45,959 nt of DNA from the IMG/VR virus record IMGVR_UViG_3300036893_000027, one strand, 5' to 3'. The notes beneath the pieces are model-generated. The model searched no databases. It was not told where the DNA came from and saw only the letters and a program-made list of their open reading frames with translations. The position numbers were made by a program, and so were the translations under genes. Every line of letters starts with the position of its first letter. Within the stretch, counting starts at the first letter, position 1. The stretch comes from a virus. Of the stretch, positions 1 through 23,569 are shown piece after piece.

Positions 1-1
1 T

Positions 2-169
2 CATATCCTTTCTTCAGTGGGAGATGGAAGGATTGAGCACGTTGCTGAACAGCTTAAGATTGACAAAGGATTCATATCAGCTACCAAGTATTTGAGAGAC
101 GAGCTTGGAGTCAGTTTGAATCAGGCTATTTTCCTCGTTCTGTTGATAGAACGATGGAATCAGATCTGA
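2..169 (+). CDS. 3' end of a hypothetical protein (partial, starts upstream of window)
   Basis: Open frame from window edge to TGA at 167-169; protein-like composition; co-directional with all other genes. Confidence 0.35.
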   Translation, partial: HILSSVGDGRIEHVAEQLKIDKGFISATKYLRDELGVSLNQAIFLVLLIERWNQI

Positions 170-181
170 GGGAGGATACAT

Positions 182-307
182 ATGAGACGCAAGCGCAGAG
201 TATGTTGTCAGTGTGGTGGCACTTTGCTTGTGCGGGCTTGTAGGATGTGTGGTAAGTGGTTTTGTCAGCATTGTATGAGTGGACACTTCCACCCTGTTCT
301 ATTTTAG
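182..307 (+). CDS. small Zn-ribbon protein (41 aa, several CxxC pairs)
   Basis: Strong RBS GAGGGAGGA 6 nt upstream of ATG; CCQCGG..CRMCGKWFCQHC; below 60-aa cutoff of ORF track. Confidence 0.5.
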   Translation: MRRKRRVCCQCGGTLLVRACRMCGKWFCQHCMSGHFHPVLF

Positions 308-346
308 CTCGGGTTTTAAATCTTGATTTGAAAGGAGATAACATCA

Positions 347-655
347 ATGGCACCTCAGTATATACTGAGAGTTTCAGTTTATGACAATGGTAATGTTGTT
401 TATTGTGAGGAGTGGGCAGCCACTGGTTTGGCTGATGCTCTTGACCTTGCTACATCCAAAGTGAAGAGGATGGATGATGTCACCCGTGAATTGGTTGACT
501 CGTATGTTGTGTTGAGAAACAATTATCAACTGCTTTGGTTATCAGCTTGTTCTATTGCCAAAGAGTTTGGAGCTGATGTTCCTGACAGGTATAAGGCTGC
601 TATACAGAGGGCTGAGAAGGCAATTGGAGCTTTCAGAAAGGTTTATGGATTCTGA
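347..655 (+). CDS. hypothetical protein
   Basis: ORF with RBS GAAAGGAGA upstream of ATG. Confidence 0.6.
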   Translation: MAPQYILRVSVYDNGNVVYCEEWAATGLADALDLATSKVKRMDDVTRELVDSYVVLRNNYQLLWLSACSIAKEFGADVPDRYKAAIQRAEKAIGAFRKVYGF

Positions 656-709
656 TTAGCTCGAATTTTTGGTGATGTAGATTTAACACACCTGAGATAA
701 GGAGTTAAT

Positions 710-1003
710 ATGATCATCGACGCACTGACCCACGCCGTCTCTGCTCAGAAGCATCTTCAGAGGGGCTTTGTGAAAGAGTATGGCAAACCCCAGCATATGG
801 ATGAGTACAACGTAGGTTTTTACTGGGGTATGCAAGCTTCACTTTCATTGCTTCGGAAAGTGAAGAGACATTGCGATTCCAGGCGTCTTAACCCTGAGTT
901 GCGTGCCTATATGAAGTGCAGGATGCTCCACGACCGTGCTGAGCACAGGCGTTATTTGTTGAAGAGAACCGAGTCTCTCAAACGCAATCAGAAAGGAGGA
1001 TAG
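710..1003 (+). CDS. hypothetical protein
   Basis: ORF with RBS TAAGGAG. Confidence 0.6.
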   Translation: MIIDALTHAVSAQKHLQRGFVKEYGKPQHMDEYNVGFYWGMQASLSLLRKVKRHCDSRRLNPELRAYMKCRMLHDRAEHRRYLLKRTESLKRNQKGG

Positions 1004-1004
1004 T

Positions 1005-1385
1005 ATGTGTTTAAAGTGTAAGAAATTACCTGAGGGTACCAAGTGTCCAGCTATGTTGGCACTTGAGAGGTTGACTCCTGGTGGATCTGAGTTTTGGGAG
1101 GATCCTATTAGGTGTGCTGATATGATTAGGAGCACACGCACAACTCTTATGAATATGCTGGTTCAATACAAGAAGGCTCTCAATCCAGAGTATATGTATA
1201 ATCTTGGATTGAGTGAGGATGAGGGTAAGTTCACCCTATCTGCTCTGCGAACTTTTGTAAAGAATAGAAGGGAGGGAGGTTCTGTAAGAGGCTTATATTT
1301 TACTGGCCTTGTTGAGCGTGTTGCAGATAGGCTTGACAAGATCATATATCCAAATGCACCTACGGGTGAGAAAGGAGAAGGATAA
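1005..1385 (+). CDS. hypothetical protein
   Basis: ORF with RBS AAAGGAGGA; start 2 nt after previous stop. Confidence 0.6.
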   Translation: MCLKCKKLPEGTKCPAMLALERLTPGGSEFWEDPIRCADMIRSTRTTLMNMLVQYKKALNPEYMYNLGLSEDEGKFTLSALRTFVKNRREGGSVRGLYFTGLVERVADRLDKIIYPNAPTGEKGEG

Positions 1386-1591
1386 TGCAGAATTGGTCTT
1401 TAGCTCTGCGTGAACAGCATGCTATGGATAGAATCTTGGTTGATGCTGCCATAGCATGCTTGAATGAAGTTGGGCCTGGTAAATCTGACTTGGCATTTGA
1501 AGTTGGAGCTAAACACGCTCGTATTAGGTTTCACGCCAGTGAGTGTTTCTCCTACTTGACCTGGAAAAATCCCGACTACAAAGGAGATTAG
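1385..1591 (+). CDS. hypothetical protein
   Basis: ATGA start/stop coupling with upstream gene, RBS GGAGAAGG. Confidence 0.5.
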   Translation: MQNWSLALREQHAMDRILVDAAIACLNEVGPGKSDLAFEVGAKHARIRFHASECFSYLTWKNPDYKGD

Positions 1592-1706
1592 AAACAATTA
1601 TGATAGTCGTAATTGTTTCCACTATTATTGCGTGGCTCTGTGTTATGCCGTGCATCTTTGGAGATTAAGTCGAGGGACTTGACACAATTTGGGTAAAGGA
1701 GGAATT

Positions 1707-2009
1707 ATGCCCCATAAGAGCAGGGCGGCTGTAGACTATAATCATTGGCTTGGTCTTTACATCATCTCGGATAATCGCCGGGATTTCTTGTCTGGGTTTA
1801 CTGGCCAGCATTGGGATCCTGAGGCCGACAAGCTAATGGACGAAGTTATTGATAGAGAGTTTGAGGAGGGAGACAAGAAAGGTAGAACGGTTAGACATAA
1901 ACTTTCTCACGCTATTTACCAGGGGTTTCTACTTGGTGTTTGGTGGGCATCAAGAGGATCGTTGTTTCCTGGGAGCAGTATAGCAAAAGAATTCCCACCC
2001 TCACGATGA
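1707..2009 (+). CDS. hypothetical protein
   Basis: Internal ATG at 1707 preceded by AAAGGAGG; the track start at 1689 is a TTG lying inside the RBS. Confidence 0.55.
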   Translation: MPHKSRAAVDYNHWLGLYIISDNRRDFLSGFTGQHWDPEADKLMDEVIDREFEEGDKKGRTVRHKLSHAIYQGFLLGVWWASRGSLFPGSSIAKEFPPSR

Positions 2010-2025
2010 TAGTGCTGGAGGATTT

Positions 2026-2412
2026 ATGAGCACTGATTTTGATATGAAACTATTGGCGTATGTTGATTTGTGCGCTCATATGATAACGAAGGATTATCTG
2101 GGTGAAAGATTTATACCTGGGTATAAAGGCTATCCTTCGTTATTGAGAGACAGAATCAGTGCTCTGAAAGATAGTCTCGCTGTGATGCGTATGGAGTTGG
2201 TTAGCACACAGAGAATGCTATCTATTGCTAGGGCACGTGAACAGAGTGAAAAAGTCGTAGTACTCAGGGAGCTTCCTTCAAAAACTCAGAGACAGATTGC
2301 GGGTTATGTATCTGAGAGTATTAAGCTAAAGAAGGAACTGAGGTTAGCTTATATTAAGATACATAATTTGAAGAAGGAGAACGAGTCATTAAAAAGGTTG
2401 TTGGAGCTTTAG
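2026..2412 (+). CDS. hypothetical protein with C-terminal coiled coil/leucine zipper
   Basis: RBS GGAGGA; heptad-like C-terminus KLKKELRLAYIKIHNLKKENESLKRLLEL. Confidence 0.6.
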   Translation: MSTDFDMKLLAYVDLCAHMITKDYLGERFIPGYKGYPSLLRDRISALKDSLAVMRMELVSTQRMLSIARAREQSEKVVVLRELPSKTQRQIAGYVSESIKLKKELRLAYIKIHNLKKENESLKRLLEL

Positions 2413-2456
2413 CTCAGATTAACTGGGCTGTTTCAGTCATTACATCTGAGGTTAAT

Positions 2457-2768
2457 ATGATTAATGTTTACTCTCATTTTATGTCCGCTCACGATCCGCA
2501 GATTAGGAGATGGAAGCATATGGGCACACCACATAAACTTGCGGTAGCTATTGAGTATTGTAAGTTTATGTCTCGTGGATACGGTGATGATTGGTATATG
2601 GCCAGTATCACACTAACGGTGTGTATGGGTATGTGCATCAATCACGAAATGAAGTGTATAACTCGTATTTGCAAGCATTGCAAGAGTTTTTACACTGGGA
2701 CTGCTTTTGGGCACTGCAAGTTTTGTGGAGGTTGGAACTTTGAGCGGAAAAAAGAAGAAGATACCTAG
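2457..2768 (+). CDS. Cys/His-rich hypothetical protein
   Basis: RBS GAGG; multiple Cys/His pairs (CKHCKSF..HCKFCGG). Confidence 0.55.
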   Translation: MINVYSHFMSAHDPQIRRWKHMGTPHKLAVAIEYCKFMSRGYGDDWYMASITLTVCMGMCINHEMKCITRICKHCKSFYTGTAFGHCKFCGGWNFERKKEEDT

Positions 2769-2775
2769 TTGGTAT

Positions 2776-2922
2776 ATGGTAGTAGTTTTAATCTTTGCGC
2801 TGGGTATGTGGTATTGTGCTATTTGGGCCTATCAGAATAACAATCTTCCCCTATTTCTGTTGGTACAATCCATAGGGCTGATCATTGCCTGGCTGCTATT
2901 TACATTAGCCAAGGAGGAATAG
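2776..2922 (+). CDS. small transmembrane protein (48 aa)
   Basis: ATG 8 nt after previous stop; hydrophobic helix MVVVLIFALGMWYCAIWAY..LIIAWLLF. Confidence 0.4.
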   Translation: MVVVLIFALGMWYCAIWAYQNNNLPLFLLVQSIGLIIAWLLFTLAKEE

Positions 2923-2923
2923 T

Positions 2924-3208
2924 ATGGTGCCGAAGTATGGATTTGAAATGGTGGGGCCATTTCGAATTTATCTCAGGGCCAAAGGCAAGCGAAGAGAGAA
3001 GCTTGTAGCTACCCTTAATAGCAAGGATGCACTTTCACGCTTTATCCTTGCTACTCCTGATTACGAAAAGATGTTTCGTGTTGAAGATATGGGTGCCAGG
3101 TTTATTACACTCCGTCGTGATAGACAGCTGTATAACTCCGATGTTGTTAGACAACAACATCGACTTCGCCTTCCCAAGCCAGAAACGAAGGATCCCGACT
3201 GGGAATAG
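2924..3208 (+). CDS. hypothetical protein
   Basis: RBS AAGGAGGAATAG-ATG. Confidence 0.6.
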   Translation: MVPKYGFEMVGPFRIYLRAKGKRREKLVATLNSKDALSRFILATPDYEKMFRVEDMGARFITLRRDRQLYNSDVVRQQHRLRLPKPETKDPDWE

Positions 3209-3217
3209 GAGAAACTA

Positions 3218-3430
3218 ATGAGGTATGAAATATATGTTGACGGAGAGCATTTGTATACTGCCGTCAAGGCTGATATTGCTTTAATCAGGTTTAATCAGAT
3301 GTTTTGGAGAGCTGAAAAGGAAATTAAGATTGTTAAGATTCCTTTTGAGCAAGGAGGAAAACCCCGTGTTGAAAACGATGCGGCTTTGGTGGGTGCAGTT
3401 GCGAGTAGCAAGGCTGCTAGGCAAGGCTGA
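3218..3430 (+). CDS. hypothetical protein
   Basis: RBS TAGGAGAAACTA-ATG. Confidence 0.55.
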   Translation: MRYEIYVDGEHLYTAVKADIALIRFNQMFWRAEKEIKIVKIPFEQGGKPRVENDAALVGAVASSKAARQG

Positions 3431-3734
3431 GGAATTGGCTCAGTCTGATATACCAGCTGGTGATCAGGTGTATAGAAGCTTATACACTGAGGTAAATGGT
3501 ATCTTGGATACCTTTACCGATAAGTATCCTATGCAAGATATTGAGATAGCTCCAGGTATTAATGATCTCAAGAAGCTTGCATATCCTGAACCTAAACCCA
3601 GTACCGTCAATAACATAGGGACTATTATTATTGGCGCTGCTATTACCTTGTTCACAGCTGCTGTTCTTTGGGGAACAGCAAGTGGAGTTGAACAAGCTGT
3701 TAGTCATCACGTAATGCATTTATTGGGAGGGTAG
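3330..3734 (+). CDS. hypothetical protein with C-terminal TM helix (start uncertain)
   Basis: Long ORF overlapping the previous gene out of frame; the true start may be an internal TTG or ATG. Confidence 0.35.
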   Translation: MLRFLLSKEENPVLKTMRLWWVQLRVARLLGKAEELAQSDIPAGDQVYRSLYTEVNGILDTFTDKYPMQDIEIAPGINDLKKLAYPEPKPSTVNNIGTIIIGAAITLFTAAVLWGTASGVEQAVSHHVMHLLGG

Positions 3735-3735
3735 A

Positions 3736-3951
3736 ATGAAAACAATAAAGCTGTTTTTCGTGTTTGTCTGGGTTATTGTTGTGTATATGGCAGCCTATGT
3801 AGCTGCTATTGGCGTGTTGTGGGGATTGTTTTATGCAGCCGTAGCTGGGATTAGTGGCATCGCTTATCTTCTGGAGAAATACCGTGCTAGGAAGGAGAGA
3901 CGTGCTACCAGGACTATGGAAATCCCTTTTCGGGTTGTTAACGAACGATGA
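3736..3951 (+). CDS. two-helix membrane protein
   Basis: RBS GGGAGG; two hydrophobic helices then a basic tail. Confidence 0.55.
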   Translation: MKTIKLFFVFVWVIVVYMAAYVAAIGVLWGLFYAAVAGISGIAYLLEKYRARKERRATRTMEIPFRVVNER

Positions 3952-4084
3952 ATATCGTGAGCAAGTTAAAGATATAGCTACAACTATATCTCATAACACT
4001 AACGATATTAACAACTATCAGCTCCCTGATAAAGAGAAGAAAGAAGCTCGTGTTATCAGGGATCAGAAGTGGAGGAAGAAGTGA
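3854..4084 (+). CDS. hypothetical protein (large out-of-frame overlap, start uncertain)
   Basis: ORF whose stop overlaps (GTGA) the next small gene's start, which suggests coupling. Confidence 0.3.
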   Translation: MASLIFWRNTVLGRRDVLPGLWKSLFGLLTNDEYREQVKDIATTISHNTNDINNYQLPDKEKKEARVIRDQKWRKK

Positions 4085-4218
4085 ATATCACCGTTGGCCA
4101 GCTTTTGATTTTGATTGTGCTTGGCAATATGCTTTGGGATGGATGCAAGCTTGTGCTTGGCATTCTGTTTACCATAATGGAATACATAATCAAGAGCAAT
4201 AGTCAAAGGGGGAATTGA
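4081..4218 (+). CDS. small transmembrane protein (45 aa, GTG start)
   Basis: RBS GGAGGAAGAA then GTG; hydrophobic LLILIVLGNMLW..LVLGILFTIM; its stop overlaps the next ATG (TGATG). Confidence 0.35.
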   Translation: MNITVGQLLILIVLGNMLWDGCKLVLGILFTIMEYIIKSNSQRGN

Positions 4219-4580
4219 TGGTAACTGAATTCGTTTTATATGAATTGGTTACTACGGTTGGCAGCTTGTTTGGCATCAAGCTTGTTAATGCCAAGCGCCA
4301 GCTGAGGGGAATTAACAGGCCTAAGCAATTGCCTGTTATAGACAAGGCTCTTCGTAAGAAGGTAGGCACTATGTCTGCCACTGAGGTTGTTATCTCGAAG
4401 AACCTTATTAGGTTCGTTAACACTATTATGAGATATAGGGCTGTGCAATATCTCATTGTGTTGGTAATGAGGAAAACCCGTGCAGAAGCTGACAAAAAGA
4501 TTAGGGTTATTGGTAGCTGCCATAGTAATACCAGGGGGATTTATTGCCCTGGGCGTTTATTGGTTGGCAAGCCGAGCTAA
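4218..4580 (+). CDS. hypothetical protein
   Basis: RBS AAAGGGGGAA; ATG at 4218 (the track TTG at 4215 is adjacent). Confidence 0.55.
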   Translation: MVTEFVLYELVTTVGSLFGIKLVNAKRQLRGINRPKQLPVIDKALRKKVGTMSATEVVISKNLIRFVNTIMRYRAVQYLIVLVMRKTRAEADKKIRVIGSCHSNTRGIYCPGRLLVGKPS

Positions 4581-4592
4581 GAAGGAGGTTGT

Positions 4593-4802
4593 GTGAGCGA
4601 TGATTTAAAAGCTCTAATCCTCCGAGTAATAAGGCAGGCTGGACACTTCTGTATATATCCTACTAAGTTTAATAAAGAGTATCTTGATGCTCTTGATCAG
4701 CTGGAGAAAAGTGGGATTATAGAGAAGTATTCTGTGTCCCATCCCAAGCATAAATATGCTGGTTATGTTTATGTTAAAAGGGGACACAAAGGAGACATCT
4801 AA
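4593..4802 (+). CDS. hypothetical protein (GTG start)
   Basis: RBS TAAGAAGGAGG 6 nt upstream of GTG. Confidence 0.5.
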   Translation: MSDDLKALILRVIRQAGHFCIYPTKFNKEYLDALDQLEKSGIIEKYSVSHPKHKYAGYVYVKRGHKGDI

Positions 4803-5122
4803 TGATATTCACTCCAAGTTCTACAAGTTCTTATATTGCTGGAGCTGGATTTTGGGCTACGGTATGGGCTATGTTGTTTAAGGCTGACACATTTGCCCCC
4901 AAGAAATTGAAGGTTCGTAGAAAGATATTCCGCTGGATTGGTAAGCATCCAGTTGAGGCAATAGTTGTTAGTGAGCTTACTAACTATGGCATTCACGGTG
5001 TGAGTAATCCACTGAGTGTAATGACTGCCATTGGTGGAACCGTTGTAAACACCATTATGGTTATGGGTGTTTGGATTTGGTACTTGGTTATTGGGAAGAA
5101 ATCTGAGCTGGCAAGGAGTTAA
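4802..5122 (+). CDS. membrane protein
   Basis: RBS AAAGGAGA; several hydrophobic segments. Confidence 0.55.
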   Translation: MIFTPSSTSSYIAGAGFWATVWAMLFKADTFAPKKLKVRRKIFRWIGKHPVEAIVVSELTNYGIHGVSNPLSVMTAIGGTVVNTIMVMGVWIWYLVIGKKSELARS

Positions 5123-5123
5123 T

Positions 5124-5294
5124 ATGGGTGGTAAGAGAGTGGAAGAGCACGAGAAGTGCGTCTACTTGATTCATCCAAGATTTAAGATGCCTTTTTTCAG
5201 GTGCAACCTTAGGGTTATACCTGGCACAGACTATTGTAAACGCCACACCAAAAAGGAGGCTAAGAATGTCAGTGGAGAGACACCCCAACATTAA
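5124..5294 (+). CDS. small Cys-containing protein
   Basis: Internal ATG 5124 with RBS AAGGAG; the track ORF 5067 otherwise overlaps the upstream gene. Confidence 0.5.
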   Translation: MGGKRVEEHEKCVYLIHPRFKMPFFRCNLRVIPGTDYCKRHTKKEAKNVSGETPQH

Positions 5295-5460
5295 TGCAGC
5301 TGGGTTATACCAAGATGTTATAACTGCATATCTTCAACGCTTACGTGGTGCAGCCCAAAGAGCAGAGAATAGGAGAGCTGCAATTGATGTTCTTCATCCT
5401 TTGGTCACCGATTTTATCAATAAGCTTGACGCAGCTCTCGATGAGAGGTTTCCACCGTGA
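5266..5460 (+). CDS. hypothetical protein
   Basis: RBS AAAAGGAGG. Confidence 0.5.
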   Translation: MSVERHPNINAAGLYQDVITAYLQRLRGAAQRAENRRAAIDVLHPLVTDFINKLDAALDERFPP

Positions 5461-5650
5461 ACCCTGAGAGTATTAGCAGTATGTTATTTGGCCAGCTCAG
5501 GTATATGTCGATTTTACTCATACCAAGCTTGATTAGGTATGGGGCTGATGTGTGTGCCCACTATGTATATTATTGTTATACATATGGGTTTATACACTTC
5601 AATATGGCGTTGTTGCATTTGCTGTAAAATTGAGGAGAAAGGAGAGAACA

Positions 5651-5878
5651 ATGAACCTACGTCTGTGGTTAAGCAAGCATCCACGCTTGACTCGCATTTG
5701 GAGCGATGAATCAGGGCAGGATATTATCGAGTATGCCTTGATCCTTGCTCTGATTGCGATGTTGGCAGTGACAGGGTTTCCTCCACTGGCAACAGCAATT
5801 CAGAAGGTGTTCACTGGAGCTCAGACTTGTCTGAATGCTCCAACAACCTGTGGTGCTACCACTGGTGGCACCAACTAA
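5651..5878 (+). CDS. Flp/Fap-family type IVb pilin homolog
   Basis: ATG 5651 with RBS GGAGAAAGGAGAG; leader plus DESGQDIIEYALILALIAMLAV, matching the Flp signature (xDExGxxxIEYxLIxAxIA). Confidence 0.55.
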   Translation: MNLRLWLSKHPRLTRIWSDESGQDIIEYALILALIAMLAVTGFPPLATAIQKVFTGAQTCLNAPTTCGATTGGTN

Positions 5879-5888
5879 CAATTAAACC

Positions 5889-5908
5889 ATTGGTATAATG
5901 TGCCAATA
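5889..5908 (+). promoter_or_regulatory. promoter-like motif ATTGGTATAATGTGCCAATA (extended -10 TGGTATAAT)
   Basis: Perfect TGnTATAAT; the motif is repeated at 5991-6010. Confidence 0.45.
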
Positions 5909-5990
5909 GCAGGACTGTATTCGTTTCATTTGTGGCAGGAGCTATTCTATCTAAGCGGCTCTGGAGGCTACAATAGAATACAGTCCTGAT

Positions 5991-6010
5991 ATTGGCATAA
6001 TGTGCCAATA
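5991..6010 (+). promoter_or_regulatory. second copy of promoter-like motif (TGGCATAAT)
   Basis: Near-identical 20-mer, 102 bp downstream of the first copy. Confidence 0.4.
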
Positions 6011-6110
6011 AACAGACTGTGTACAGGGTTATTACAAGCAGGTTGGTGTAAGGCATCACGGTACTGGAGAACACCAACTGAAAGCTTGTGATAGTACACA
6101 GTCTGTATTA

Positions 6111-6183
<73 letters not shown>

Positions 6184-6254
6184 CCAATTTCTGTAAGTTC
6201 TGTGTTGCTGTGGCACAGATGTAGTGTAGTGAATAACAGTGAAAGGAGGGCCAA

Positions 6255-6470
6255 GTGCGCTACATAAAAGTGCTGAAGACTCTTGCTATTGTTGTAGGCG
6301 GAAGTCTTTCAGCTCTGGGTGTTTACTTTCTCTATCGCTCTATGTTTGGCGGGACTCCAGCTATTGAAGCTGATAGTCGTGCTGTTCAGGGAGCGTGGCG
6401 TAGTGCTGTTTCCGGCATTGCGAATCTGTTCCGTCGTAGTAGAACAGATGAGACAGTAATAGCTGCGTAG
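6255..6470 (+). CDS. hypothetical membrane-associated protein (GTG start)
   Basis: RBS GAAAGGAGGG then GTG; hydrophobic N-terminus. Confidence 0.5.
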   Translation: MRYIKVLKTLAIVVGGSLSALGVYFLYRSMFGGTPAIEADSRAVQGAWRSAVSGIANLFRRSRTDETVIAA

Positions 6471-6520
6471 TTGGGTGAGGCTAGTAATAGCCTCACTTTA
6501 AATCACAATCAGGAGGTGTT

Positions 6521-6760
6521 ATGTCAAATAAGGGAACCAAGTGGAGTGCTGAACGACGTGCCAAATTCAAAGCCAGCTGGGCTGCGAGGATGGCAGAAAA
6601 GAGGGCTCAAAAGAATCGTCTGGGTAAGTCGAGGAATGAATCCAATACCGTTGTAGCATTGGCTCTTCCTTCCATTGATACATTCGATTCAGATGATGTG
6701 AAAGCCCTGTTGAGGATGCAGCGTAAGCATCCTCATCTGTTTGACGGTTGGCTGGATTAA
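6521..6760 (+). CDS. basic hypothetical protein
   Basis: RBS AATCAGGAGGTG. Confidence 0.6.
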   Translation: MSNKGTKWSAERRAKFKASWAARMAEKRAQKNRLGKSRNESNTVVALALPSIDTFDSDDVKALLRMQRKHPHLFDGWLD

Positions 6761-6779
6761 TTCCAGCTAAACACAGGCT

Positions 6780-6819
6780 GGGTGAATTGTAGTTCTTGGG
6801 CAATTCACCCTTCCTTTGA
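6780..6819 (+). terminator. putative intrinsic terminator
   Basis: 10-bp perfect stem GGGTGAATTG/CAATTCACCC followed by TTCCTTTG. Confidence 0.45.
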
Positions 6820-6836
6820 TAAGCCTTGCCATTTTT
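6814..6836 (+). promoter_or_regulatory. conserved motif CTTTGATAAGCCnnGnCATTTTT (copy 1)
   Basis: Same 23-nt motif recurs at 11903-11925 upstream of another gene. Confidence 0.3.
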
Positions 6837-6948
6837 CGCCATAGTTGTGTGGGCTATAGGCGTGTTGTGGAAATAACCACACCGACTGACGGGTGGAGGG
6901 TGTGCTTATCTCAATAGTGGGGGCTCACCCTCCATTAAAATAGGAGAT

Positions 6949-7131
6949 ATGATGAATGAAAAGCAGTTCTATGACTTCTTAGCTGAAACAAGATCTATGA
7001 CCACGGATGAACTGCTCCATTGTGTGCTTGATATAACAGCGACAGAGTGTGAGCATTGGTTTGTCAAGGTAAATATGATCTTTTCTGAGCTGGAAAGGAG
7101 GGGATGGAATGATGAGGTCGATGGCTTTTAG
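6949..7131 (+). CDS. hypothetical protein
   Basis: RBS ATAGGAGAT. Confidence 0.55.
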   Translation: MMNEKQFYDFLAETRSMTTDELLHCVLDITATECEHWFVKVNMIFSELERRGWNDEVDGF

Positions 7132-7528
7132 ATGGAGGATTTATTGGGTTGGCTTGATAGCCGCTTTGTTTGGGCTTTTGTGGTTTAAGAATAAGAAATA
7201 CTATCCTGATAAAGGTTGGCGCTGGACAGGTGGTAAGTCCATTCTTGAATGCCTCGGTCTTGTTGTTTCGGCCATATATATGCCAGCTTTGATTGTGGCT
7301 TATGCCAGTATATGGTTGACCAGAAACATCAAACATCAATACATTAAGCTGGCTGCAAGTGTAATAGTCAGCATACCTCTTATGCTTATGGGCAACCTTC
7401 TTCTTGAGGGCCTTGTTATTATAGGTGCCTTTGCCATTGAACTGCTGTCCTCCGATGTGATACGATATTATCGTGAAAGGAGGAATAAACGATATGGAGT
7501 ATCAACAGAAGTCGCTCAATCTGCGTGA
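7109..7528 (+). CDS. multi-pass membrane protein
   Basis: RBS GGAAAGGAGGGG; three or four hydrophobic helices. Confidence 0.6.
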   Translation: MMRSMAFRWRIYWVGLIAALFGLLWFKNKKYYPDKGWRWTGGKSILECLGLVVSAIYMPALIVAYASIWLTRNIKHQYIKLAASVIVSIPLMLMGNLLLEGLVIIGAFAIELLSSDVIRYYRERRNKRYGVSTEVAQSA

Positions 7529-7721
7529 GCTGATAGATGAGCTCTGGGCTTTGTATTTTGTTTTTATCAAGGGTTTGTGGCTATCTGCTACATCCTTGTT
7601 GTATATGTTTGCTTTACTTATGTATACAACAGCCCAATGGTTCTTTGTTGGTAGTAAGAGATTGTATGTTAAAGCACAGGACTGGAAGCCTGTCAGACCT
7701 GTTATCTTTAACATCGAATAG
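7494..7721 (+). CDS. membrane protein
   Basis: Internal ATG 7494 with RBS GAAAGGAGGAATAAAC; hydrophobic core. Confidence 0.5.
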   Translation: MEYQQKSLNLRELIDELWALYFVFIKGLWLSATSLLYMFALLMYTTAQWFFVGSKRLYVKAQDWKPVRPVIFNIE

Positions 7722-7729
7722 GAGGTCTT

Positions 7730-8215
7730 ATGGCTGCGAGGAAGTTCTTGTGCTGGAATTGCAAACATAACGGCAAGCTTAAGCTTGTTGCTGGTAGATA
7801 TGTTTGTAGTAAGTGCAAGAAGGAGCCTAAGAAGGTCTATTGCCAAAACTGCGGCCGTAAGATATGGGCCTCTGATGGGACTTGGATACACAATACTTAT
7901 GTAAGGTGTACCCCTCAGCCTTACATACATTACGATGAGTATAACGGAGGCTCCTATACATATGGAGGTGTTAGTTGTGGCTATCATAATCCACGCCTGT
8001 TAACTTCCAATCCTCCTACTTATAACTGGTGCGTTTGTGATTACGAGGGTAAACCAGTTTTGAATTGCACCTGTGAGACTTACAAGAAAGAGAGGGATAG
8101 GCTCATTGACAAGCGGAACGCTGCAATTCATCGGGACGAAGAAATCAAGCGTAAGAAAAGAGATAAGGTATTAGCCAAGTTTGAAAAGCTTGGTATAAGG
8201 TTGGAGATTATATAG
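7730..8215 (+). CDS. Zn-ribbon / multi-CxxC protein
   Basis: RBS TAGGAGGTC; CWNC..CSKC..CQNC and further Cys clusters. Confidence 0.6.
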   Translation: MAARKFLCWNCKHNGKLKLVAGRYVCSKCKKEPKKVYCQNCGRKIWASDGTWIHNTYVRCTPQPYIHYDEYNGGSYTYGGVSCGYHNPRLLTSNPPTYNWCVCDYEGKPVLNCTCETYKKERDRLIDKRNAAIHRDEEIKRKKRDKVLAKFEKLGIRLEII

Positions 8216-8223
8216 GAGGTATT

Positions 8224-8472
8224 ATGCCAGTGCTTCGTGGTAGAGACAAAAGTGTAAGACCTGCTTTGAACGCAGTGATTGAGATAGCACATAGTCTTTC
8301 TCAATTGCGGGCTATTATTTATCTTTATCCGAATGTCAAGGGTCTCAAAGCCGAAGTGGAGCACGCTGAAGACCATCTTGAAAATGCCATCTATCACTTG
8401 AACCTTGAACTTGGGAGGTCAAATGTTAAAGGAAAAGTTGGATGTAATGCTACCATTCCAGTCAAGATATAG
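8224..8472 (+). CDS. hypothetical protein
   Basis: RBS TAGGAGGTATT-ATG. Confidence 0.55.
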   Translation: MPVLRGRDKSVRPALNAVIEIAHSLSQLRAIIYLYPNVKGLKAEVEHAEDHLENAIYHLNLELGRSNVKGKVGCNATIPVKI

Positions 8473-8836
8473 TCTTGAAAAACCCCTTCTTGTCAGGATT
8501 TATCCACATCTACTCGAGAGTGCCTGCCGTAGAAAGTCCTATAGGAGCTATGATATAGGACTTTCCCATAATGATTTAGATACTACTGCTCATATGCTGT
8601 CTGTATTGTCTCACGAGCTTGGACATATAATGCTTGATATTACGGGGTTACCATTTGCTTTTGGACTTTTGAACCAGCCAGATTCTTATTCTGCCCGTAA
8701 GTATGTCTATAGGACGGAGTCTAAGGCTTGGGATAAAGCTAGGTTAATATTTGAAGAGACCAGGAAGCTTTGTCTGCGTAGCTATGAAAGGGATTTAGGA
8801 TTGGAGGATCCTTTTGCTAAAAGACAAACTGATTGA
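8423..8836 (+). CDS. putative HExxH zinc metallopeptidase (ImmA/IrrE-like)
   Basis: ATG 8423 with RBS GGGAGG; motif LSHELGHIMLD. Confidence 0.5.
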   Translation: MLKEKLDVMLPFQSRYSLEKPLLVRIYPHLLESACRRKSYRSYDIGLSHNDLDTTAHMLSVLSHELGHIMLDITGLPFAFGLLNQPDSYSARKYVYRTESKAWDKARLIFEETRKLCLRSYERDLGLEDPFAKRQTD

Positions 8837-10349
8837 TGCTGGTTTGGCTTTTATGGATATGGTTATTGATCAGGTTCCAACCTTGCTGTCTGAAATAATT
8901 GGAACTAAAATCAAGAACAAAGCTGTTGATGCTATTGGTATTAAGTATAAGGGAATACCGAGGCTATTATCAGCTCGAGTTCTTGCGAAGAGAGCAGAAG
9001 ATGGTGCTTTCCTATCTGGCCCACAACAGATAGGATATGCCAAGTTTGCTATTCGCAAGGGTTTACCGGGCCCTGGTCAGAAGTATATGGCGATTGAGAA
9101 TGAACCACACACCGTTGATGATTTCAGTGGTGTGATTAAGGAGGGATATGGCAAAGGACGAAAGACCCTTGTTTGGTCCGGGCCAGCAGCAATCAAGAGT
9201 GCTGACCGCAGATGGATTGGGAGAGTTAATATCCATCTCCATAGCGCAGAACGTGCGGGAGACCACTATGATTTCGTTGCGGAAGGCGTTAGCCCAGGGG
9301 CCACGCAATTTGAAGTTAATATTCCGTCTGGTAAGTTTAGAGGACGGTACGCATTTGTGTCTCCTGACGGATTTTCAGGTGGAGAACGACTCATCACGAG
9401 GATGAAAGATCGTGGTGTATCTCTTGAGAAACCACGGTTTATCCTCAAGGATATTGACGAGCTTGTAGCATTAGATATTCTTGAGTCTCCTGATGCTGTA
9501 GTTGAGTGGAAGCCTGATGGTAGCTTGGGTAATGTTCTTATCCACGAGAACAGAGCTATTATTACCAGCCACAGGAAACAGGTTCCTTCCTATTACGATA
9601 AACTACCAGCTCTTGAATGGTTGGATAATAAGAGTCGATTGTTTACCAATAGACTCTTATTCAAAGGGCCAGATCAACAAGGGACTTTGTTGAGGGCTGA
9701 GCTATTTCATCCTGATGGAGCAGCAAGAGTTGGAGGTATCTTAAACTCTTCCCCTGATAAGGCTCAGTTATTCCAGCGTAAGAATGGGCCTGTTGTTACT
9801 TATGTTTGGGACATTGTCAAGCTCAGGGGAAGGGATGTTAGCAAACGGCCATACATAGAAAGGAGAGCAATATACGAGGATGTAGTAAAAGATATACGCA
9901 GGTATAATAAGAATTGGTTTGTTATACCTTCCGCTGACAAGAACTTTGTTTCATTCTATGAGCGGATTATCCACGATAAACGTGGTCTTCCTTGGAGTGA
10001 AGGTGTACTGATTAAAGAACACACCCACAAGACAGGTGATTCTGTCTATAAGGTTAAGTTCCGTGATACTTACGATGTCATCGTCTTGGATGTATTACAA
10101 GGCGAAGGCAAGCGTAAGGGTATGGTTGGTCAGTTTGTAGTTGATACTGGCCAGGGTGTAGGTGAAGTGGGCAGTTTTATGGCTACAGATAAGCAATTGA
10201 GATGGATGTGGAGAAATCGCAGCCTGCTCAAAGGACAGGTAGCTGAAGTATATGCCCAGGATGTCACGGAAGCTGGAGCACCAAGGGCTGGTGTGTTCTT
10301 CAGGTGGCATCCATCCAAGTCCGATGTTGCTAATTTGATGCCAAGGTAA
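8814..10349 (+). CDS. ATP-dependent DNA ligase with N-terminal LigD-type 3'-phosphoesterase-like domain
   Basis: Motif I EWKPDGS, motif III LRAELFHPDG, IV YVWDI, EGVLIKE, OB domain with motif VI-like PRAGVFFRWHPSKSD; N-terminus HLHSAERAGDHYDFVAEG resembles the LigD PE motif HxHx..HYDFRLE; probable TTG start with RBS GGAGGA. Confidence 0.8.
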   Translation: MLKDKLIDAGLAFMDMVIDQVPTLLSEIIGTKIKNKAVDAIGIKYKGIPRLLSARVLAKRAEDGAFLSGPQQIGYAKFAIRKGLPGPGQKYMAIENEPHTVDDFSGVIKEGYGKGRKTLVWSGPAAIKSADRRWIGRVNIHLHSAERAGDHYDFVAEGVSPGATQFEVNIPSGKFRGRYAFVSPDGFSGGERLITRMKDRGVSLEKPRFILKDIDELVALDILESPDAVVEWKPDGSLGNVLIHENRAIITSHRKQVPSYYDKLPALEWLDNKSRLFTNRLLFKGPDQQGTLLRAELFHPDGAARVGGILNSSPDKAQLFQRKNGPVVTYVWDIVKLRGRDVSKRPYIERRAIYEDVVKDIRRYNKNWFVIPSADKNFVSFYERIIHDKRGLPWSEGVLIKEHTHKTGDSVYKVKFRDTYDVIVLDVLQGEGKRKGMVGQFVVDTGQGVGEVGSFMATDKQLRWMWRNRSLLKGQVAEVYAQDVTEAGAPRAGVFFRWHPSKSDVANLMPR

Positions 10350-10393
10350 GGAAAGAATCCCCACCATTAAGGTGGGAGTACTGGGGGTGTAAA

Positions 10394-11005
10394 ATGAAGT
10401 ATGTAATAGCAGTAGTATTAGCATTAGTCTTTGCTTCGTATGCTCAGGCTCAGTTGCTACCACAATCTACCGTGGTATTTGTGGGGCCTGAGACTACGGT
10501 TCAGGGATATCAGCATAATACGAGGGGAACTGATGGCTATATGGCTGCTGGATTAGATTTTGAGGATCAACAGCCGATGTATGCTGCTATCGATACCACA
10601 TTCGCCAGTTATTGGTTATGGGAATATGGTACGACAGATCCAAGATCAGTTATAGTTCGGGATTTTATTCAGCCCGATCATCTGCCTGTATTACCTGGGC
10701 AGGGAATAGCTGCTACTTGGTTCAGTTTTCCCAGTCTTACAATCGGCCTCGATTTAACAGATGGGAATACACATAGTGTATCTCTTTACGCTGTTGATTA
10801 CGATGGCCAAGGCAGAGATGAGACCGTGTTAGTTTATGACACGGTTACTGGTATCTTATTGGATATGGAACGGATCCCTTATCCATTTAAGAACGGTTTG
10901 TATTTGGTCTGGAAGATCAAAGGTAATGTCACTTTTGACGTTATCTGCAATCAAGGGCCAAACGCTGTAGTCTCTGCTTTCTTCTTTGATCCCCCAGCAC
11001 AATAA
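10394..11005 (+). CDS. secreted protein (signal peptide)
   Basis: N-terminus MKYVIAVVLALVFASYAQA, a typical Sec signal with an AxA cleavage site. Confidence 0.6.
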   Translation: MKYVIAVVLALVFASYAQAQLLPQSTVVFVGPETTVQGYQHNTRGTDGYMAAGLDFEDQQPMYAAIDTTFASYWLWEYGTTDPRSVIVRDFIQPDHLPVLPGQGIAATWFSFPSLTIGLDLTDGNTHSVSLYAVDYDGQGRDETVLVYDTVTGILLDMERIPYPFKNGLYLVWKIKGNVTFDVICNQGPNAVVSAFFFDPPAQ

Positions 11006-11015
11006 GGAGGAATAA

Positions 11016-11330
11016 GTGCAACCACGGGAACATTACCAGCCCGTGATGGTTACCACTACTCTGTATAAACGGATGGTCAGAGTCGGTGCTATATGTAGCA
11101 GTTGCAGGCAGCGTGTTGCTGAGCACGGTGGTTTTAAGCCGTGTGTTGGTGCCGCTGCAGTCATCTCTACCGATCTTGTCAGAGCAGCGTGTGGTTTCCA
11201 TCGGGCTTTGAATGGAGATTCACTCAAGAAGGCTTTTTACTTCCACCTGGCTGAGACTGTATCCGAAGTAGGCTCGCAGTATTGGTGGGAGAAATTAGCC
11301 TTCAAACTTCGTGAGCTAATGAAATCTTAG
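11016..11330 (+). CDS. hypothetical protein (GTG start)
   Basis: RBS AAGGAGGAATAA then GTG. Confidence 0.5.
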   Translation: MQPREHYQPVMVTTTLYKRMVRVGAICSSCRQRVAEHGGFKPCVGAAAVISTDLVRAACGFHRALNGDSLKKAFYFHLAETVSEVGSQYWWEKLAFKLRELMKS

Positions 11331-11939
11331 CTCAAACAAGTTCCCGTAAGGGAAGGTAACAGATTATGAGCTGTTACCAGTCAACGCTGTAGGCATCAGC
11401 GGGAGGTATGACCCTGATGTAGATTATAACGCACGGCCGAATCTAATAGGTAGTATGCATCTACCATTAGATCCCGTCTAACCCTGACCAGAAGCCTACT
11501 ACTGGAGCGAAGGTACCACACCTGGGGAACTCCAAGTAGGAATAGGTGTACCACTGGGTAGAATCTAACTCAGTGGTAAAGCCTAACAGGTAGCCTGGAG
11601 GTAATGCGAACGTGGATAGTTCATAGGAGGGGTCGTTGTCCAGCGGTGGGCAACGACTGGTAGTGGAAGTCTATCTACGGTCGTTTGCTACACAGCGGTA
11701 GAGTATATTCTTGTATAGAATATACTTTTAGTCTGGTGCTACTCAAGGGTAGAGTATACCAGGTGAGTGGGATGTACTCAGTGCTTTAGGAGTACATCCA
11801 GAGTGGATTATACCAAGTAGTTGGGTACTGCTCATTGGTTTAGATATACCCAGTTATTTGGTTATACTCAGTAGGTGAAAACTACTGGGATAAGCCCCGA
11901 TTCTTTGATAAGCCCCGGCATTTTTGAAAGGAGGAGATT
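11331..11939. repeat. 600-bp ORF-free region dense in direct repeats and hairpins
   Basis: No ORF of 60 aa or more; reiterated (G)GTAGAGTATAYC, TGGATTATACC, GATATACCC and (A/T)ACTCAGTRG units; several 7-10 bp inverted repeats (e.g. GGATGTACTC/GAGTACATCC, CTAATAGGTAG..CTACCATTAG, GTCGTTG..CAACGAC). Confidence 0.5.
11903..11925 (+). promoter_or_regulatory. conserved motif CTTTGATAAGCCCCGGCATTTTT (copy 2), with adjacent GATAAGCCCCG direct repeat
   Basis: Matches 6814-6836; lies 15 nt upstream of the next gene start. Confidence 0.3.
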
Positions 11940-12152
11940 TTGGAAGAGCGTGAGCCATACACCCACGAACATCACAGCTTCACAAAGAAACTACCACACA
12001 TTCCTTGGCCATTCTGTGCCTACTGCGGGCTATTAAGATTAAGGAATTGGCTCACCGACCAAGCTGTTAAACTTGGATGTAATCACACTGATCATCCCAG
12101 TTGGAAATCTTTGGTCAAGAAAGGGGAACCAATTGGACATCATCACAATTAA
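11940..12152 (+). CDS. hypothetical protein (TTG start)
   Basis: RBS GAAAGGAGGAGATTT-TTG. Confidence 0.4.
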   Translation: MEEREPYTHEHHSFTKKLPHIPWPFCAYCGLLRLRNWLTDQAVKLGCNHTDHPSWKSLVKKGEPIGHHHN

Positions 12153-18052: not shown

Positions 18053-18417
18053 TAGATGAAGTGCTTCATCAGGAGGCACTTCAGCTGGCCAATTCAGAGG
18101 AGGGCATGAAGCAGTTAGTTCATGCCCTTCTTTTTAGCACATCTGGTTTGGAAGCTGATTTTATTAAGGCACTTAAAAAGTATGTCTACCTAAAACGTGT
18201 CTACCAAATTCAAAGGGCAAGGGAATCAGAAGGATACAACCCAAACAGGAAAAACCTGAACATAGACACAAGCAAGGAAGAAGTAGAAAATGCTCACGAG
18301 CGTATGCGGGAATACGAAATAGGACTGGGTTGTGAATATGGCTTTGACTATGTTGCTCACCTCAAGAAGAGTTGGGGAAAGATACTTTCATTACAAGCAG
18401 CAAAATTGGGACTGTAA
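18049..18417 (+). CDS. hypothetical protein
   Basis: ATGA coupling; its last 10 nt overlap the 5' end of tRNA-Lys. Confidence 0.55.
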   Translation: MIDEVLHQEALQLANSEEGMKQLVHALLFSTSGLEADFIKALKKYVYLKRVYQIQRARESEGYNPNRKNLNIDTSKEEVENAHERMREYEIGLGCEYGFDYVAHLKKSWGKILSLQAAKLGL

Positions 18418-18480
18418 CTCAGTTGGTAGAGTAGCTGACTCTTAATCAGCGAGTCGTGGGTTCGAATCCCACCAGTCCCA
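18408..18480 (+). tRNA. tRNA-Lys (anticodon CUU), CCA encoded
   Basis: Acceptor GGGACTG/CAGTCCC, anticodon arm GCTGA-CTCTTAA-TCAGC (CTT at 18441-18443), T-loop GGGTTCGAATCCCAC. Confidence 0.85.
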
Positions 18481-18538
18481 CCACTTTCTTGAGGCTGTAG
18501 CTCAGCAGTTTCTATGTTACAATGTCCACATTTCATAT

Positions 18539-18614
18539 GTCCTCGTATCGGAACGGACTTCTAATCCGTAGCCCCGTAAATGGATCAATGTGAGTTCGAG
18601 TCTCACCGAGGACA
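18539..18614 (+). ncRNA. atypical tRNA-Arg(UCU)-like element without a canonical D-arm
   Basis: Perfect 7-bp acceptor GTCCTCG/CGAGGAC plus ACCA, anticodon arm ACGGA-CTTCTAA-TCCGT (TCT), T-arm GTGAG-TTCGAGT-CTCAC; only 7 nt lie between acceptor and anticodon stem, with a 20-nt region where the variable loop should be; a 5' Ala-tRNA-like fragment (GAGGCTGTAGCTCAGC) sits immediately upstream. Confidence 0.4.
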
Positions 18615-21957: not shown

Positions 21958-22245
21958 ATGGAGAAGATTCAAGCAGAAGTGCGTTTATATTATACAGGAA
22001 GAACAAGCTGGGAAACTGAGTATTTCACAGCTTCGTCTCTTATGGATGTTCAGATTCAAGCCACAAAAATTGCCAAGGAAAGACAAGCCAGTCATTTCAA
22101 CTTTGGGTTGGCAACACCTGAGGAAAATATCCAAGAAAATCGCAGACTAACTTCCAAAGTCTTTGGGGCAAATATCCCGGTGAAAGATCAAGTAAAAGCC
22201 ATAGAAGGAGCTCTAGGTCTAAGGACTGAAGATGACTCAGACTAA
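21958..22245 (+). CDS. hypothetical protein
   Basis: RBS TTAGGAGAAATA-ATG. Confidence 0.6.
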   Translation: MEKIQAEVRLYYTGRTSWETEYFTASSLMDVQIQATKIAKERQASHFNFGLATPEENIQENRRLTSKVFGANIPVKDQVKAIEGALGLRTEDDSD

Positions 22246-23212
22246 CCCAGAAAAGAAAGAAAGAGAAAGACACAAACCCAAGATTTATATGAACATAGGT
22301 CTTCCTGGTTCCGGTAAAACAACGGAATCCAGGAAGATGATGAATCACGACTCGAATATTATGAGAATTAACAGAGATGATATTCGTGCTATGTGTATGA
22401 ATCATTGGAAGGGAAAGAAGGAAGAATATGTCACTTTATTGGAACAGGAAGCTATTAAGCTTGCCGTTAAAGAACGATACAGTGTTATTATTGATGACAC
22501 CAACCTCAATCCTAACACGAGGAAAAAGTGGGAAAATCTGGCTCTGGAGCTAAAGGTACCTTTCGTTGAGAAAAGCTATCTGGAAGTATCCCTACAAGAT
22601 TGTATTGAAAGGGATGATAACAGAGATAAGAAAGTCGGCAGAGTTGTAATTGAAAATATGGCTCTGAGATACAATCTTATCCCTAAACCAGATAAGCCAA
22701 TTGTTATCTTTGACATCGACGGAACTTTGGCTGACCTTAGTCATAGACAGGGCTACCTAAAAGTATGCAAGGTATGTAAGAAGCTTGAAAAATACCATAT
22801 CGAGAAGATAGAAGGAGCTTGTGGAACTTACACACCGAGCAGGAAAGATCATATATCCTTCTATAATCTTGTCCACGAAGACAAGCCTATTTGGACTGTT
22901 ATAGATTGGATTAACGCTTGCTCGGAGGATTATTATCCAATCTGTGTCTCTGGTCGACCTATGAATCTAACAGGTGAGTCTACCCACTGGTGGCTTAGTA
23001 TGTATCACGTCAATTATCATCATCTTTTTATGCGGGAAAGTGGTGATTTTAGACAAGATACGATTGTTAAACAGGAGATTCTTGACAAGATTCTGAAGTG
23101 GGTACCCAAAGATCAAATTCTATTCACGGTTGATGATAGACCTTCTATCGTTGAAATGTGGAAGAAGAATGGAATCCGCTGCTATGATGTGGGAAAAGGA
23201 ATAGAATTCTAA
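22232..23212 (+). CDS. pnkp: polynucleotide 5'-kinase/3'-phosphatase (T4 Pnkp-like)
   Basis: N-terminal P-loop GLPGSGKTT kinase; C-terminal HAD phosphatase motif VIFDIDGTLAD (DxDGT) with downstream VDDRP. Confidence 0.85.
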   Translation: MTQTNPEKKERERHKPKIYMNIGLPGSGKTTESRKMMNHDSNIMRINRDDIRAMCMNHWKGKKEEYVTLLEQEAIKLAVKERYSVIIDDTNLNPNTRKKWENLALELKVPFVEKSYLEVSLQDCIERDDNRDKKVGRVVIENMALRYNLIPKPDKPIVIFDIDGTLADLSHRQGYLKVCKVCKKLEKYHIEKIEGACGTYTPSRKDHISFYNLVHEDKPIWTVIDWINACSEDYYPICVSGRPMNLTGESTHWWLSMYHVNYHHLFMRESGDFRQDTIVKQEILDKILKWVPKDQILFTVDDRPSIVEMWKKNGIRCYDVGKGIEF

Positions 23213-23291
23213 TGAATAACTATGAAAAAATCCTCATTGTATTAAGAGTAATAATGACCTTCATTGAGGTTGGGTTTTTGTGTAGTATTAG

Positions 23292-23543: not shown

Positions 23544-23569
23544 TAGTTATATAAGTTCCCATATGGGAA
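23536..23569 (+). promoter_or_regulatory. extended -10 promoter TGGTATAAT followed by 14-bp perfect palindrome TTCCCATATGGGAA
   Basis: Same TGGTATAAT as at 5891; palindrome 23556-23569 sits between the promoter and the RBS of the next gene. Confidence 0.4.

Follow-up and report, generated by a model that had tools for sequence, protein, structure and literature searches.

An orphan Flp-type (Tad) pilin gene in a large tailed phage and its possible action on the host pilus

What would a phage do with a single pilus subunit? The question is raised by the IMG/VR virus record IMGVR_UViG_3300036893_000027, a stretch of 45,959 nucleotides (nt) that we call, at its full length, the window, and by a short gene at positions 5651-5878 whose product resembles Flp, the major pilin of Tad (type IVc) pili. 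Flp prepilins are cut by an A24 aspartyl peptidase of the TadV/CpaA type after the glycine of the motif G/XXXXEY; the TadA/B/C platform then assembles the mature protein into a filament whose core is formed by Glu5 and the hydrophobic helix. A tad/cpa locus is the typical context of Flp/Fap pilins, though not a strict criterion of the protein family. By analogy with pilus factors described in other phages, we propose, at a probability of about 45%, that the orphan phage Flp enters the Tad pathway of the host and modifies or disables the receptor that the pilus offers to phages. The setting is one of soil or sediment phages, with mostly uncultured hosts.

The gene and the two parts of its product are placed as follows:
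5651-5878, plus strand: Flp (type IVc/Tad) prepilin gene, recognised by its open reading frame, the Pfam family Flp_Fap and a homologue in a bacterial tad operon.
5651-5716, plus strand: leader peptide, amino acids (aa) 1-22, MNLRLWLSKHPRLTRIWSDESG, basic and ending in Gly(-1) of G/XXXXEY, in register with the mature solved Tad pilins.
5717-5875, plus strand: predicted mature pilin, aa 23-75 (53 aa), QDIIEYALILALIAMLAVTGFPPLATAIQKVFTGAQTCLNAPTTCGATTGGTN, composed of QDIIEY, a hydrophobic helix and a C-terminal part; E27 and Y28 are invariant.

A sequence-only reading of the window had already singled out this open reading frame (ORF) as a Flp-type prepilin gene, and its position (ATG at 5651, TAA at 5876-5878), sequence, length of 75 aa and motif assignment are all as first noted. 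The start codon lies six bases downstream of a Shine-Dalgarno (SD) sequence, AGGAG at 5640-5644, which agrees with the motif AAAGGAGA recurring in the intergenic regions of the window; a second purine-rich element, GAGGAG, is found at 5632-5637. The JGI pipeline labels the product 'Flp pilus assembly pilin Flp', with an over-extended start giving 101 aa. This start and the one of the longest ORF (108 aa), both further upstream, were discarded, because ATG 5651 has the SD and a bacterial homologue aligns from Met1. With 75 aa and no globular C-terminal domain the prepilin is of typical length, its relatives having 54-92 aa. The hydrophobic segment SDESGQDIIEYALILALIAMLAV is present, with a mean Kyte-Doolittle value of 2.28 over a 19-residue window (aa 25-43), and the C-terminal part of the mature pilin holds Cys60 and Cys67, in the motif TCLxxxxxC(G), followed by a Thr/Gly-rich tail.

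Flp_Fap (PF04964) matches residues 17-58 of the pilin over profile positions 2-43 of 46, at an E-value of 2.7e-7 and 30.7 bits, a significant match that nevertheless misses the curated gathering score (32.2) by 1.5 bits. The same family is listed for the identical protein in precomputed database matches. Scans of NCBIfam and PHROGs gave no family for the pilin, and PHROGs gave none for 10 other diverse Flp pilins either. In the PDB, the best matches are mature Tad pilins, 8U2B/8UCR (8U2B at E 0.0018) and Caulobacter PilA, 8U1K (E 0.0044). Pilin residues 25-63 align with chain residues 3-41 of these structures, which sets the mature N-terminus at Gln23, Glu5 at E27 and Tyr6 at Y28, and predicts prepilin cleavage after Gly22.

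Relatives are numerous: phmmer, run exhaustively over 1.84 billion cluster representatives, returned 826 of them at E<=1e-3, the best at E 2.8e-15 and with 55-57% identity. Across a family alignment of 40 sequences, six residues never vary (G22, Q23, E27, Y28, L30 and L34), all of which are present in the phage protein; W17, D24, L25 and L37 are nearly invariant. The assignment of Glu5 and Tyr6 made at first sight is thus correct, both by register against the solved pilins and by invariance. Judged by these comparisons, the gene almost certainly encodes a genuine Flp major pilin.

A word-indexed protein search returned two proteins. One, P0001, comes from the same phage gene, with a tail longer by five residues; the other, P0002 (65 aa), is the closest bacterial relative, with an identity to the phage pilin of 67% in the homology search, 73% in a MAFFT alignment and 74% over the best 54-aa BLASTP segment. 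P0002 is encoded on a bacterial contig with 52-61% guanine and cytosine (GC), Ga0455670_0149964 (L001). There the genes follow in the order sigma-54 activator, 501-aa protein, pilin P0002, Peptidase_A24, RcpC and one further gene, the last of which matches tad-locus neighbours in 22 other loci. The locus is a real tad operon, and its pilin, together with the motif in register and the significant similarity to the family and to Tad pilins, bears out the first assignment of the phage product. The neighbour proteins of L001 reach best identities of 33-52% to the bacterial loci compared, and do not assign this contig to a taxon.

Phage pilin and P0002 do not differ at any position between -4 and +12 relative to the cleavage site (DESG/QDIIEYAL), and have in common the segment GFPPLATAI and a C-terminal TCLxxPTxCG. 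The phage copy differs by a longer leader, by 11 substitutions in the mature part and by a tail of 7-12 aa, ATTGG(n)TN. Three of these substitutions, all conservative, fall in the first 28 mature residues and eight in the next 18, just ahead of the tail. Over 50 aligned codons, nucleotide identity is 65%; the proportion of synonymous differences (pS) is 0.90, that is, saturated, and that of nonsynonymous differences (pN) is 0.164. GC at third codon positions (GC3) is 0.47 in the phage pilin, as compared with 0.39 in the large phage genes, 0.59 in P0002, which is adjoined by Peptidase_A24 and RcpC, and 0.59-0.67 in the bacterial pilin and its neighbours taken together. On this codon-level evidence the pilin is an old capture from a bacterial host lineage that has drifted towards phage composition, its protein held by purifying selection.

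The same figures bear on the simplest objection, namely that the gene is a functionless passenger or an assembly chimera: bacterial DNA picked up by chance, or misjoined. The GC content of the gene (0.50, above the 0.42 of the window) would fit. However, synonymous sites are saturated and yet the protein is conserved, GC3 has ameliorated, and the SD is of the phage type. Moreover, the same pilin is found in five assemblies (the window, JGI 3300037168, and Logan SRR11569229, SRR11576585 and ERR11630400). These are independent, and concordant for the gene and its flanks, with nucleotide identities of 99.98-100% in the two overlaps measured (contigs L072 and L162); the identical protein is also present in contigs L154 and L073. 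We regard an accidental origin as hardly credible.

The likely source can be narrowed down. A scan of GTDB, with one genome per species, found 68 loci with relatives at 34-68% identity. The exact DESG/QD junction occurs in 37 loci, 36 of which belong to Acidobacteriota metagenome-assembled genomes, pointing to a lineage of capture that was probably Acidobacteriota-like, as far as one gene can indicate. The G+C content of the phage is much lower than that of such Acidobacteriota hosts. For a phage of this kind, a pilin with the DESG/QD junction is a rare host clue, with the Tad pilus as a likely receptor.

A bacterial Flp subfamily (P0005, P0006, P0009-P0020 and others; loci L006, L008, L011, L026, L060 and L061) ends in T-C-L-x5-7-C, sometimes trailed by a Gly/Thr/Ala-rich tail. 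The two cysteines suggest a disulfide-closed C-terminal loop, which would be unusual for the helix-only Tad pilins.

The carrier of the gene is a tailed phage with a genome of more than 100 kb. The window itself, which is a whole JGI contig of 42% GC with nearly all genes on the plus strand, has no capsid, terminase or tail gene among its PHROG and Pfam matches. It belongs to a chain of overlapping contigs: Logan contig L072, with an identical pilin, overlaps window 1-6147 at 99.98%, and the 62-kb record IMGVR_UViG_3300036893_000002 overlaps L072 at 100% over 4,477 nt and window 1-127, again at 100%. That record encodes a terminase large subunit (phrog_2, E 2.9e-26) and a portal protein (phrog_9232, E 1.3e-34), and therefore the chain is that of a tailed phage. 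On the other side, a 99.9-kb Logan contig overlaps window 35375-45959 at 100% and extends about 60 kb beyond, from which the genome size follows. The pilin lies in the non-structural arm, transcribed divergently from the arm with terminase and portal.

No Tad machinery accompanies it. Pfam found no Peptidase_A24, T2SSE, T2SSF, RcpC or secretin among the 73 plus-strand ORFs of the window; PHROGs gave other functions for 8 of its 10 largest ORFs, and the remaining two were within the Pfam scan; tblastn with the tad-operon proteins of L001 had no match in the window. No tad/cpa gene (tadV/cpaA, rcpCAB, tadZABC) was found in the window or in the flanks inspected, and a hidden Markov model (HMM) of the pilin family detects a single Flp ORF in the window and available flanks. 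Both the phage origin and the missing Tad genes, read at first from the letters of the window alone, are thereby confirmed. As for related phages, megablast of window 4000-12000 against GenBank phages matched nothing but tRNA-Met, and IMG/VR scans with the window's DNA ligase and with an RNA ligase gave no match.

Neither an integrase nor another lysogeny function appears in the Pfam summaries or PHROG matches of the window ORFs. The phage is apparently non-temperate, its gene content being like that of large virulent phages. This matters for one alternative, in which the phage manipulates host behaviour, the extra pilin boosting or altering the Tad-dependent adhesion or biofilm of the infected or lysogenic cell. 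Tad pili are indeed adhesins. Flp has been annotated as an adhesion or 'virulence factor' in the Vibrio harveyi prophages phi345 and phiGANI1709 (PMC12482185). A slow adhesion phenotype would be of little use to a virulent-like phage in whose inspected parts no lysogeny function is seen, and one more major pilin would add little where hosts have paralogues, as in the 218 pilin ORFs of about 150 loci. We find this alternative quite unlikely.

Are there other orphan Flp genes in phages? Scanning IMG/VR with the single pilin protein found nothing; the 40-sequence alignment was needed, from which a degenerate pattern was built for the scan. This returned 11 viral contigs (L163-L173) of 5-134 kb and 49-60% GC, with pilin relatives at 34-51% identity. 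All 11 relatives have an intact G/QDLxEY, and PF04964 matches 11 of the 12 viral pilins. Defining a tad-type neighbour as one shared with three or more other bacterial loci, we found such neighbours at none of the 11 viral loci but at 80 of the 84 bacterial loci of at least 8 kb. Compared with the genes around the pilins of about 150 bacterial loci, the viral neighbours gave two isolated matches across the 11 loci. Phage hallmarks stand beside several of the viral Flp genes instead: a portal gene 250 nt downstream (L168), an overlapping DNA polymerase gene (L169), a tail fibre gene (L163) and a terminase gene (L164).

The viral loci have almost nothing but the pilin in common. Two pairs of related contigs apart, the distance of a viral pilin from its bacterial counterparts is much the same as from the other viral pilins, suggesting that orphan Flp genes have been captured several times independently. 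Beyond IMG/VR, tblastn of the pilin and two other Flp queries against 50,697 GenBank phage records had no match at E<=1, these short hydrophobic queries having limited sensitivity. A literature search for phage-encoded Flp, for Flp in viral contigs and for the Tad pilus of Acidobacteria together with phage found nothing by those terms. That orphan Flp is a recurrent, independently acquired phage weapon, re-surfacing or sabotaging the Tad pili of largely uncultured hosts, is a tentative proposal, to which we would give odds clearly short of even.

The viral relatives also bear on a different use of the protein, as a co-opted membrane peptide whose Flp-derived helix would act in the membrane independently of the pilus. 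Small ORFs with predicted transmembrane segments do lie in the neighbourhood of the phage pilin. A peptide of this sort would not require Gly(-1), Gln+1, Glu5, Tyr6, the leader Trp(-6) or the C-terminal Cys pair, all of which are retained; the same motif is kept in the 11 other viral Flp genes. Since every determinant of processing and assembly is still there, we consider such a co-option improbable.

The retention of these determinants is what the receptor proposal builds on. The 75-aa phage prepilin would insert into the inner membrane and be cut after Gly22 by the A24 prepilin peptidase of the host (TadV/CpaA). The resulting 53-aa subunit, with Glu5, Tyr6 and a core helix nearly identical to that of the host type, would enter the host TadA/B/C platform and co-polymerise with host Flp. 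Its divergent, exposed C-terminal third and Thr/Gly-rich tail could then alter the surface of the pilus, or an excess of the subunit could perturb pilus dynamics. Pilus-dependent phages, be they competitors or the phage's own progeny, would no longer adsorb productively to the infected cell. The outcome would be receptor replacement or superinfection exclusion, as for the phage FimU.

The structure of the Caulobacter Tad pilus has the pilin N-terminus buried at the centre and the C-terminal end outward, and phage phiCb5 binds exposed residues and the C-terminus of that pilin (PMC11067988). Two of the four substitutions in the pilin of a non-host strain, N43R and T51A, lie in the C-terminal half and affect hydrogen bonds to the phiCb5 maturation protein; the authors propose that they contribute to the resistance of that strain (PMC11067988). 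In Pseudomonas, a prophage FimU is built into the type IVa pilus and blocks tip-binding phages, while PilA-like genes, including N-terminal-only versions, occur in virulent phages, where the same role or an inhibition of assembly has been proposed (PMC12952977).

The latter suggestion has a counterpart here. Excess phage pilin could be processed, or at least bind TadV and the platform, and poison assembly, so that Tad pili are lost entirely; superinfection would be excluded, or progeny spared from being wasted on infected cells, without any incorporation. The strong SD would suit such dominant-negative jamming; overexpressed FimU disrupts assembly, and a truncated phage PilA has been suggested as an assembly inhibitor (PMC12952977). 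Sequence alone does not separate jamming from incorporation. A pure inhibitor, however, would not need all assembly determinants, and yet Glu5, Tyr6, the core helix and the Cys pair are kept under purifying selection, as would suit a subunit still obliged to pack into a filament. Jamming by itself is, in our judgement, unlikely.

Several observations weigh against receptor alteration by the phage pilin. The clustering of divergence at the C-terminus, and variable G/T/A-rich tails past the second Cys, are also seen among bacterial relatives. As far as the alignments go, the divergence pattern is not specific to the phage, and the two-Cys motif and tails are subfamily features rather than a phage invention, since many bacterial relatives have them. 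An AlphaFold2 model with helices at 22-42 and 44-62 is of low confidence, with a mean predicted local distance difference test (pLDDT) score of 57.6 and a predicted template modelling (pTM) score of 0.29 from a three-sequence alignment. A promoter scan and an intergenic k-mer search showed no sigma-70-like promoter upstream of the pilin. The search for Tad genes on the phage side covers about 80 kb of a genome exceeding 100 kb, and a phage-encoded peptidase or Tad component could lie elsewhere. Finally, we infer the tad locus of the host from the genomic context of the homologue.

The surroundings of the pilin gene hold four further features, one of them within its coding sequence:
5563-5583, no strand: perfect palindrome ATGTATA-N7-TATACAT in a 190-nt non-coding stretch, 68 nt upstream of the pilin start; found once in the window, with 0 expected.
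5855-5869, plus strand: 15-nt unit GCTACCACTGGTGGC, encoding aa 69-73 (ATTGG); duplicated in tandem and in frame in a variant, giving an 80-aa product.
5889-6009, plus strand: near-perfect 121-nt hairpin (hairpin 1), starting 11 nt past the pilin stop; its 34-nt arms are the longest inverted repeat of the window.
6012-6105, plus strand: second long hairpin (hairpin 2), directly before tRNA-Met (6111-6186).

The palindrome may be an operator. Hairpin 1 ends in two palindromic boxes, ATTGGYATAATGTGCCAAT, that are present nowhere else, and may mark the 3' boundary of the pilin transcript or serve in its processing. The plus-strand spacer of 234 nt that contains both hairpins (5879-6112) has a minimum free energy (MFE) of -103 kcal/mol, compared with -58 +/- 4 for shuffled sequences (z = -10.7). 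Neither hairpin has an Rfam family, at the gathering threshold or at E<=1; the two may be RNA processing elements, terminators or a small RNA.

Variation between assemblies is found here. The sole coding difference among the five lies in the pilin tail of ERR11630400 (L003), where the duplicated unit turns ATTGG into ATTGGAATGG, in the part predicted to be exposed. The same variant has the interior of hairpin 2 (window 6040-6095) replaced by a longer, unrelated, branched insert (L003 4560-4720), keeping the closing stem ACRGACTGT...ACAGTCTGT. In L073 the loop of hairpin 1 has a 5-nt deletion, and the 100-kb Logan contig L155 breaks near window 6130. In view of these hairpin variants and the break, the hairpin region appears to be a hotspot of variation.

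Elsewhere the window has the equipment of a large phage. Four tRNAs were found by ARAGORN and a fifth by Rfam only (18539-18614, plus strand, 42.6 bits), adjoining tRNA-Lys at 18408-18483. PHROG and Pfam functions comprise an ATP-dependent DNA ligase, polynucleotide kinase, two RNA ligases, NMNAT-Nudix, nicotinamide phosphoribosyltransferase (NadV), HNH endonuclease, SLT transglycosylase, RNase H, SSB and peptide deformylase. Several of these form an RNA-repair and NAD-salvage cluster at 22232-30138 (plus strand), made up of polynucleotide kinase, an Rnl1-like RNA ligase, the NMNAT-Nudix fusion, nicotinamide phosphoribosyltransferase and a T4 gp63-like RNA ligase. Host-like auxiliary genes, all on the plus strand, encode a 606-aa protein with an OmpA domain, an ABC-type ATPase and the peptide deformylase (35949-37769, 39006-39815 and 43829-44536). 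NADAR, SpoU methylase and SprT-like domains are encoded by ORFs within 17163-45755. Nearer to the pilin, the small ORFs with predicted transmembrane segments are at 4480-4596, 4802-5122, 6255-6470 and 7109-7528.

An 807-aa protein (40269-42692, plus strand) contains a Major Vault Protein (MVP) shoulder domain (E 3.9e-30) and a Vault_3 repeat; Band_7/SPFH (E 6.5e-4) matched one unidentified ORF of the same batch. MVP-like homologues with 41-45% identity are encoded on four IMG/VR contigs of 46-114 kb (L158-L161), which share nothing else with the phage and offer no basis for a comparison of synteny. Outside the window, a 984-aa protein (L162 9788-12742, plus strand) is encoded by the first gene of the plus-strand block, directly after the divergent switch region (L162 8152-9788), and ends some 1.6 kb short of window position 1; PHROGs, PDB sequences and GenBank phages contain no match to it. 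Downstream of the window end, L155 10385-20384 encodes an AAA ATPase, a DUF2201 protein, a second ATP-dependent DNA ligase, a WGR-domain protein and a dCMP deaminase.

Part of what is described here is known already: the Flp family label given by JGI, phage-borne homologues of type IVa pilins, and a Flp gene in Vibrio prophages. New, in a modest but concrete way, is the finding that a tailed phage of over 100 kb has preserved for a long time an intact orphan gene for a major Tad pilin, with a direct link to a homologue in a tad operon. New as well are comparisons suggesting that diverse uncultivated phages acquired Flp genes independently. That a phage copy of a pilus subunit can stand in for the receptor and exclude other phages was demonstrated only in 2026, and only for the type IVa pili of Pseudomonas; the window and the 11 viral contigs make the idea testable for Tad pili (type IVc), a different and very widespread class. 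If it holds, the receptor-replacement defence of type IVa minor pilins would extend to a major type IVc subunit. Should the recurrent use as a weapon hold too, Tad pili would be a major phage receptor in these lineages, and phage pilins could serve as markers for host prediction. If the gene does nothing of the kind, it is an ordinary host-derived moron, already named 'Flp pilin' by JGI.

How does the phage Flp compare with known systems? It is like the solved Tad pilins and the PF04964 family in its size, basic leader, G/XXXXEY site, Glu5 and Tyr6, single predicted hydrophobic helix and short, predictably exposed C-terminus. It departs from the norm of the family in being encoded on a phage with no tadV, rcpCAB or tadZABC in the vicinity, and in scoring below the gathering threshold. 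The leader ending in W-x-[DE][DE]-x-G/QD and the C-terminal two-Cys motif are traits of its subfamily.

The nearest functional parallel is P-FimU of F10-like Pseudomonas phages (Sztanko et al., Cell Rep 2026, PMC12952977). Both proteins are homologues of a structural subunit of the host pilus and have kept what assembly requires, and their differences, among them a lengthened C-terminus, fall in parts that are exposed or predicted to be so; the outcome proposed is in each case receptor replacement and superinfection exclusion. P-FimU is, however, a minor tip pilin of type IVa with a globular domain, encoded by temperate phages and tested experimentally, whereas the phage Flp is a major type IVc (Tad) subunit with no globular domain, in an apparently non-temperate large phage, and is known from its sequence. 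The PilA-like proteins of Xylella prophages and virulent phages are, like it, orphan homologues of a major pilin, and the N-terminal 60-residue PilA fragments of six Pseudomonas phages have a helix-only, Flp-like architecture (PMC12952977). In contrast to the phage Flp, these are type IVa proteins processed by PilD, none being of the Flp type, and their function is only proposed (PMC12952977).

The Vibrio harveyi prophages phi345 and phiGANI1709 (mSphere 2025, PMC12482185) carry a Flp gene identified by sequence similarity and are likened to our case by description only; unlike the present phage they are temperate, and their Flp is read as an adhesion or virulence factor. Inhibitors of the Tip, Aqs1 and Zip/PlzR type, lastly, share the proposed end result, a pilus receptor inactivated after infection, but reach it by another route: small and unrelated, they bind to PilB or PilZ in the cytoplasm and are not homologues of a pilin.

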